IMG/VR virus record: IMGVR_UViG_2609459839_000004
Length of the DNA: 18,695 bases
Direction: 5' to 3' (one strand)
Source: a virus
Lineage: Duplodnaviria; Heunggongvirae; Uroviricota; Caudoviricetes
Position 1 is the first letter of the stretch, and each line of letters begins with the position of its first letter. The notes beneath the pieces were generated by a model. It was not told the origin of the DNA. It saw nothing but the letters and a program-made list of their open reading frames with translations, and made no database searches. Below, piece by piece: positions 9,345 through 9,605 of the stretch. The position numbers and the translations under genes were made by a program.

Positions 9345-9605
9345 ATGACTCAAAACTATGAACTGATTGTGAAAGGGATCCGCAATTTTGAGAATAAAGT
9401 TACGGTAACTTTAGCGTTACGGGACAAAAAACGCTTTGACGGTGAAATTTTTGACCTGGACATCTCGCTGGACCGTGTTGAAGGTGCCGCGCTGGAGTTT
9501 TATGAGGCATCAGACAGGTCTTCCTGGATGTTGCTGCCGGGTTATGTGAAGGGGACGAGCTGTTGCCAGAAACGCGCCCCTGTTCAGAGGCGCGGTATAC
9601 CATAA
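9345..9605 (+). CDS. Hypothetical protein (86 aa) between holin and endolysin
   Basis: ATG 5 nt after the holin stop with GGAG upstream; no family recognised; S and R are normally adjacent. Confidence 0.4.
   Translation: MTQNYELIVKGIRNFENKVTVTLALRDKKRFDGEIFDLDISLDRVEGAALEFYEASDRSSWMLLPGYVKGTSCCQKRAPVQRRGIP

Follow-up and report, generated by a model that had tools for sequence, protein, structure and literature searches.

The stretch of DNA analysed here (the window, 18,695 nt of the Caudoviricetes record IMGVR_UViG_2609459839_000004) carries a phage lysis cassette in which an open reading frame (ORF) of 86 codons lies between the holin and the endolysin gene. This raises the question of what the frame encodes and whether it has any part in lysis. 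An earlier reading of the sequence alone had taken it for an extra gene without a recognisable motif, followed by a long spacer, whose product might modulate the timing of lysis or be cargo that is co-expressed with the lysis genes. The analysis presented below leads to a different answer: the frame is very probably an allele of ydfR, a small cytoplasmic accessory late gene of lambdoid phages, that has been frameshifted by a deletion of 16 bp.

Architecture of the lysis cassette

The ORF is found on the plus strand at 9345..9605, starts with ATG and encodes 86 amino acids, as read from the sequence and the ORF list, and the matches of its neighbours to PF04971 (upstream) and PF00959 (downstream) place it between holin and endolysin, as had been proposed. 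The upstream gene (9125..9340, + strand) encodes a class II holin of the phage-21 S type with 71 amino acids (PF04971, Phage_holin_2_1, 112.5 bits). Its product also matches phrog_9876 and phrog_20 (holin), and in relatives the same protein is named 'class II holin family protein' by PGAP. A possible second start is present at Met4 (9134). Note that the N-terminus of this holin reads MYQM (9125..9136), a dual-start motif without a basic residue; the S gene of phage 21 presumably starts with MKSM, where the extra lysine separates antiholin from holin.

The holin gene ends with TAA at 9338-9340, and 4 nt separate this stop codon from the ATG at 9345, one fewer than the sequence-only reading had counted. 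A purine-rich run, GGGGAGAG (9330..9337, + strand), is located within the final holin codons with its GGAG core approximately 9 nt 5' of the ATG, a spacing that suits a Shine-Dalgarno sequence. This run is the likely ribosome-binding site of the downstream gene, in agreement with the earlier suggestion that the ORF has a Shine-Dalgarno sequence of its own. The gap of 4 nt would permit translational coupling. As evidenced by the comparison with related lysis cassettes that had been recommended, the same spacing is found in all eight annotated relatives examined, the prophages of E. coli 55989, E275a and K-12 and the phages mEp460, Perceval, Stx2-86, 2H10 and Evi.

Downstream of the ORF, the endolysin gene (9699..10232, + strand) encodes a phage lysozyme of 177 amino acids with a hydrophobic N-terminal segment (PF00959, 86.7 bits; phrog_7, endolysin), and an Rz-like i-spanin gene (10531..10995, + strand; PF03245, 172 bits; phrog_13) contains an embedded Rz1-like lipoprotein ORF (10751..10933, + strand, from the ORF list). 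Between the lysozyme stop and the Rz start, two genes that overlap in E. coli 55989, an insert of about 300 nt is present (10233..10530). It contains a strong terminator-like hairpin of 13 pairs followed by a T-run (10323..10355) and an ORF of 57 codons (10356..10529; 45 amino acids from an internal ATG) that encodes a hydrophobic, TM-like segment and matches phrog_6632.

The apparent spacer between the ORF and the endolysin gene (9606..9698) measures 93 nt. A regulatory RNA or a terminator was considered for this segment and rejected: an Rfam scan of the spacer returned no match, the fold of 9600-9705 is undistinguished (z = -1.4), and a hairpin at 9618-9643 is a weak consensus match. Two minus-strand ORFs at 9400..9603 and 9356..9463 were likewise dismissed as shadows of the plus-strand gene, since coding constraint is found in the plus-strand frame.

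Assignment to the YdfR family

The product of the ORF matches the Pfam family PF07041 (DUF1327/YdfR) with 99.8 bits (E = 1e-28; gathering score 25), so that the earlier statement that it has no recognisable motif does not hold. The match is confined to residues 1-60 of the product, the profile having 93 positions. A further match is found to phrog_2735 (E = 2e-35), and the several PHROG families of differing length that match the product have in common its first ~60 residues. Over the first 60 amino acids the product is 80% identical to YdfR of E. coli K-12. NCBIfam holds no model for the DUF1327/YdfR family, and the translation of the ORF contains no TM-like segment, a point on which the sequence-only reading was right.

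When 5,426 complete E. coli genomes were searched at the DNA level, the stretch from holin through the ORF to lysozyme was detected in 4,179, where the middle gene is annotated as 'YdfR family protein' or 'DUF1327 domain-containing protein'. A 31-nt stretch specific for ydfR was found in approximately 3,360 of the same 5,426. The order holin-ydfR-lysozyme is also annotated in the phages mEp460, Perceval, Stx2-converting phage 86, 2H10 and Evi, and is thus present in plaque-forming phages as well as in the Qin prophage of K-12. Judged by its sequence and its neighbours, the ORF is the known prophage gene ydfR (DUF1327) and not a new gene; the family, the name and the position between holin and endolysin are all already contained in Pfam, in the RefSeq annotation and in the K-12 genome. 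What had been described as an extra ORF is an accessory gene that is truly there, but one that occupies the same spot in Qin, in phages and in thousands of genomes.

A 16-bp deletion and its consequences for the reading frame

In the prophages of E. coli 55989 and E275a, the same locus with the same neighbours encodes an intact YdfR of 104 amino acids (WP_000193273.1). When ydfR of the window is aligned with the gene from E. coli 55989, the sole difference is the absence of 16 bp, GCAGCAGCCAGAAGGA, with the deletion junction at 9506..9507 (+ strand). As this gap is the only difference, the product is native up to residue 55 and then continues with 31 codons in another frame. Codons 1-55 (9345..9509, + strand) are identical in DNA to the intact gene and in protein to WP_000193273.1, and residues 56-104 are replaced by 31 out-of-frame residues, SDRSSWMLLPGYVKGTSCCQKRAPVQRRGIP, encoded by codons 56-86, which are followed by the stop codon TAA at 9603-9605 (9510..9605, + strand). 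The 86-codon frame that had been read as a gene is consequently a composite. The original 3' frame, abandoned but still open at 9509..9643 (+ strand; IRQVFLDVAAGLCEGDELLPETRPCSEARYTIKINSSDNSITGC, with the stop codon TAG at 9641-9643), translates exactly to residues 61-104 of WP_000193273.1 (IRQVFLDV...NSITGC). As 38 of the 93 nt in the apparent spacer were formerly ydfR coding sequence, the true intergenic gap 5' of the endolysin start is 55 nt by coordinates (9644..9698, + strand), and the spacer of some 90 nt noted earlier, while of about the right length, is in part old gene.

The same picture emerges on a larger scale. The best full-length DNA matches span 637 nt for a query of 621 nt, and the E275a prophage, the closest one in a complete genome, aligns with the 6.8 kb surrounding the cassette at 99.7% identity, with four mismatches and a single gap, the one of 16 bp; its ydfR is intact with 104 codons for amino acids. 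The missing bases were lost between two imperfect direct repeats, GCAGCAGCCAG and GCATCAGACAG, which are 11 nt long each and 16 nt apart, and of which the second copy is retained. Replication slippage on a 3-bp microhomology is the most likely cause. In this prophage lineage the deletion shifted the frame after codon 55, and the cell can make at most three native beta-strands and a stub of the conserved helix, with 31 residues attached that are unrelated to YdfR. What was once the 3' end of ydfR survives untranslated and makes the gap to the endolysin gene appear longer than it is. As the indel does not comprise a whole number of codons and the native downstream frame is still recognisable, ydfR of the window is probably a pseudogene, the label that PGAP gives to an analogous deletion allele.

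The pattern of substitutions follows the same boundary. Between divergent members of the family, pairwise dN/dS in the native frame is 0.2-0.45 for codons 1-54 and 0.15-0.5 for codons 55-84, and the former range marks the ydfR family as real coding sequence. For the bases that underlie the tail of the window product, pN/pS is 0.33-0.53 in the native frame and 0.96-1.17 in the tail frame, or all changes in the latter are non-synonymous, the counts being small; in K-12 the tail frame is interrupted by a stop codon. Small but consistent, these counts indicate a coding-like pattern in the first 55 codons and none in the last 31. The coding-pattern check that had been suggested to refute the ORF thus gives a divided result, in favour of a gene for the native frame in relatives and against one for the last 31 codons, where pN/pS is about 1.

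An overlapping gene in an alternative frame was first suggested by the many database proteins that share the window tail (P0001-P0020). These are mostly single sequences from short-read assemblies, and each represents a frameshift of its own, at a position that varies, into the one alternative frame that is open over a long stretch. Given these independent frameshifts, a pN/pS close to 1 and the in-frame stop codon in K-12, the alternative-frame gene was rejected.

Origin and distribution of the deletion allele

Two observations could be taken to mean that the deletion is an artefact of sequencing or assembly and the gene really intact. A 40-mer across the junction of the window was found in none of the 5,426 complete RefSeq E. 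coli genomes by DNA search, a meaningful result in that a perfect match of this length would score E = 9e-12, and public collections contain many one-off ydfR frameshift variants from short-read assemblies. However, the exact 86-residue protein is represented by EYE25607.1 and EYE37928.1 (E. coli 1-110-08_S1_C3, NCBI) and occurs on at least 24 public contigs. The junction 40-mer is present in all eight loci that were fetched (L009-L016), seven from NCBI assemblies and one from a Logan sequencing run, and these differ from the window by 0-5 SNPs, GCA_001912105.1 being identical to it. The same junction in eight loci from separate assemblies and projects, with SNPs elsewhere, rules out a one-off sequencing error, and the loss of 16 bp between direct repeats is typical of biological slippage and atypical of a read error. 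We consider the chance of an artefact to be negligible; on this comparison of sequences the deletion is a real, inherited allele.

The polarity of the event can be read from the complete genomes. About 1,800 of them match the surrounding 70 nt as two pieces that span 86 nt, which means that they hold the 16 nt absent from the window. With some 1,800 genomes that contain the 16 nt and a handful that do not, the reverse polarity, an insertion of 16 nt from which the intact-length relatives would be derived, is unlikely.

Note that a second, different 16-bp deletion has occurred at the same repeat pair, with the first copy retained, in 9 of the 5,426 complete genomes (e.g. L002 3388..3427), and it is the copy with this second type of deletion that PGAP describes as a pseudogene 'missing C-terminus'. 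Its junction peptide, AAARSSWMLL, is also found on other ydfR backgrounds (P0001, P0012). With two types of 16-bp deletion at one repeat pair the site appears prone to slippage, and the alignments suggest either that the repeat pair is a recurrent slippage hot spot or that the second deletion was spread by recombination.

The allele can further be placed in time relative to another loss in the prophage. Three loci that carry it (L009-L011) keep an intact adjacent terminase, and the window and L012 are without about 4.9 kb of terminase and portal genes. Since the terminase-intact loci already contain the frameshift, it preceded the 4.9-kb deletion. A different and larger deletion in the terminase region is present in L013. 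The segment missing at position ~12807 of the window corresponds to 13725..18635 of the E275a locus (L003), a prophage that is otherwise 99.7-100% identical, and comprises the genes for the small and large terminase subunits, a head-tail joining protein, the portal protein and the 5' part of an S49 peptidase gene. Having lost terminase and portal genes, the prophage of the window is expected to be defective in packaging.

The conserved core of YdfR and the state of the window product

The family is small: among 1.84 billion representative proteins searched with its profile, only 79 members were retrieved at E <= 1e-3. Several of these are stand-alone proteins of 72-76 amino acids that end just past the conserved helix. 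In an alignment of 25 sequences, Y5, Y53 and E54 are invariant, V9, V19, G47 and A57 are near-invariant, and the helix motif is conserved to residue ~72, also in the relatives with 72-76 residues. Beyond residue ~72 follows a mosaic of at least five unrelated C-terminal tails, leading to total lengths of 103 residues in K-12, 104, 114-116, 183 in 2H10 and 268 in Stx2-86.

An AlphaFold2 model of the intact 104-residue protein has strands at 5-14, 18-27 and 34-43, a helix at 50-73 and a low-confidence tail, and in the model of the window product the sheet is kept, with pLDDT values below 50 and predicted disorder from residue 58 onward. Note that both models are of only moderate confidence, with mean pLDDT values of 63 and 59, respectively. 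A comparison with families of solved structure yielded no match. Taken from the alignment and the models, the conserved unit of the family is a module of about 72 residues with the predicted arrangement beta-beta-beta-helix. Its native codons 1-55 in the window account for the three predicted beta-strands and for the initial turns of the helix; Y5, G47, Y53 and E54 are kept and A57 is changed to D, and the complete core of three strands and helix 50-72 is not present. As the deletion removes helix residues 56-72 of the conserved core, we infer that the product would be non-functional or strongly impaired.

Alternatively, the 86-residue protein might be a functional short YdfR in which the N-terminal beta-sheet module is active and the C-terminus dispensable or exchangeable. 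The extreme variability of the C-terminus in the family, with lengths from 72 to 268 residues, the restriction of what several PHROG families share to the first ~60 residues, the retention of all three invariant residues and the inheritance of the allele across at least eight assemblies, some with an intact neighbouring terminase, are all in line with such a protein. Nevertheless, the natural short members without exception reach residue ~72 and keep A57, [FL]65, D67, [IV]68 and A69, whereas in the window product the departure begins at residue 56. The tail frame is free of coding constraint, binding to RNase E has been shown for fragments down to residues 1-72, and the analogous allele is annotated as a pseudogene by PGAP. 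A functional short variant is very unlikely in our view, and we favour a loss of function, with some residual function of the beta-sheet part of the product being possible.

The holin, endolysin and Rz/Rz1 genes beside the frameshifted ydfR are intact, and the lysis genes proper are independent of it; phage 21 and lambda lyse their hosts without ydfR. Several strains have kept the allele, among them some whose prophage retains its terminase genes, and as it is found alongside these genes the frameshift is not obviously tied to prophage decay.

The role of intact YdfR

The sole family member for which experimental data are available is YdfR of K-12, which is reported to bind the N-terminal, catalytic domain (NTD) of RNase E (Göpel et al., RNA Biol 2026, PMC13232886). 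In that work residues 1-72 were recovered in a two-hybrid screen, the RNase E domain co-purified with Strep-YdfR, and RNA was present in the YdfR eluates, where a contaminant as its cause could not be excluded. Over-expression of YdfR led to almost no change in the transcriptome. The link to RNase E comes from one study that relied on over-expression (PMC13232886).

The role in lysis timing that had been envisaged for the ORF would make ydfR a dedicated modulator, either antiholin-like or a holin-binding factor, that acts on the pinholin. The gene is co-transcribed with the lysis genes, and its distance from the stop codon of the preceding class II holin gene is invariably 4 nt, even at the synonymous-site saturation seen in Stx2-86, while the junction to the endolysin gene varies. 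This invariant link argues for co-translation with the lysis genes. In addition, a screen, as it is cited in PMC13232886, reportedly flagged K-12 ydfR for envelope integrity, a phenotype that could however be a polar effect on essQ/rrrQ. Against a lysis modulator, the protein has neither a TM segment nor a signal peptide, it has no match of a lysis category in Pfam, PHROGs or NCBIfam, its distant homologues lie in tail-gene regions outside lysis cassettes, and the frameshift allele is tolerated in cassettes that are otherwise intact. The cassettes of phage 21 and lambda, moreover, work without the gene. We found nothing in support of the proposed timing role, the only experimental lead being the binding of RNase E and RNA (PMC13232886), and regard a dedicated modulator as improbable.

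The second role suggested earlier, cargo that is co-expressed with lysis, fares better, as the variable C-termini and the relatives in tail regions fit a reading as cargo or a mobile moron. Two distant DUF1327 relatives of 72-76 amino acids are encoded in tail-gene regions rather than lysis cassettes. Loci of distant DUF1327 genes outside lysis cassettes were observed at L018 446..992, L019 93..616 and L008 1746..2285. One of these genes is flanked by a sequence resembling the C-terminus of a tape-measure protein and by the gene for a minor tail protein; another precedes an ORF that seems to begin like lambda tail protein J. Each is accompanied by a convergent ORF for about 93-99 residues, and the one at L018 (~99 amino acids) is 65% identical to the ORF beside the 72-residue YdfR in the lysis cassette of phage Evi (phrog_25324). 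The recurring arrangement may represent a mobile two-gene module of DUF1327 and a convergent ORF. A catalogued defence system or moron cargo was also considered, and none of the proteins compared with the PADLOC models had a match, be it the window product, intact YdfR, one of its long variants or the product of a reverse ORF nearby.

Although this is the weakest step of the argument, we infer that intact YdfR is most likely a moron-type late accessory protein and binds some target in the host, for which RNase E or RNA is the foremost candidate; that it forms part of the lysis clock is less likely. [quoted passage not shown] We consider this a speculative proposal with little chance of being correct. 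If it were true, the allele of the window and the 99.7% identical E275a prophage would form a natural, near-isogenic pair of knock-out and wild type, and the two independent 16-bp deletions at one repeat pair would mark a recurrent off-switch.

Further features of the prophage

Upstream of the lysis cassette, the window contains three tRNA genes (7494-7566, 7577-7650 and 7667-7740), and at 7818..8007 the sRNA family STnc100 is matched over its full length (RF02076, 132 bits). Mapping of the E275a annotation further places genes for a Ser/Thr protein kinase, a PP2C phosphatase and a DNA methyltransferase in the late region downstream of the Q antiterminator (~3489..5827), an anti-adaptor gene of the IraM/PmrD family on the minus strand (8033..8368), and a DUF1737 pseudogene immediately 5' of the holin gene. 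In E275a itself, an inserted IS2 element separates the PP2C phosphatase gene from a small hypothetical gene (L003 5587..6919); ~6018-6022 of the window is the corresponding empty site.

Comparison with known systems

Few prophage genes are as widespread in E. coli as ydfR, whose function is unproven. The lineage described here offers a natural, probable loss-of-function allele beside intact, near-identical prophages, which could be used for experiments on RNase E or on lysis. The main value of the present analysis is corrective, in that both the 86-codon frame and the long spacer result from a frameshift.

Several small phage proteins bind the RNase E of their hosts, among them Srd of T4, Dip (gp37) of phiKZ and the gp0.7 kinase of T7. 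If the interaction of YdfR with RNase E is physiological, YdfR would by analogy be another phage-encoded ligand of this enzyme.

Among intact members, PERCE_61 of phage Perceval and gp55 of mEp460 are identical to WP_000193273.1 or differ from it in one residue. YdfR of K-12 (b1555, P76160) is encoded in the cryptic prophage Qin in the order essQ-ydfR-rrrQ, likewise 4 nt past a class II holin gene. It has 103 residues, with a C-terminal class that differs from residue ~66, and the ydfR stop codon overlaps the start of rrrQ. The cassette of the window as a whole resembles that of phage 21 in its PF04971-type holin, its lysozyme with a hydrophobic N-terminus and its Rz gene with an embedded Rz1. 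In phage 21, the S21 pinholin, the R21 SAR endolysin and Rz/Rz1 form the cassette, and S and R are adjacent. In the window, by contrast, ydfR is located between holin and endolysin, as in most E. coli prophage cassettes with this type of holin.
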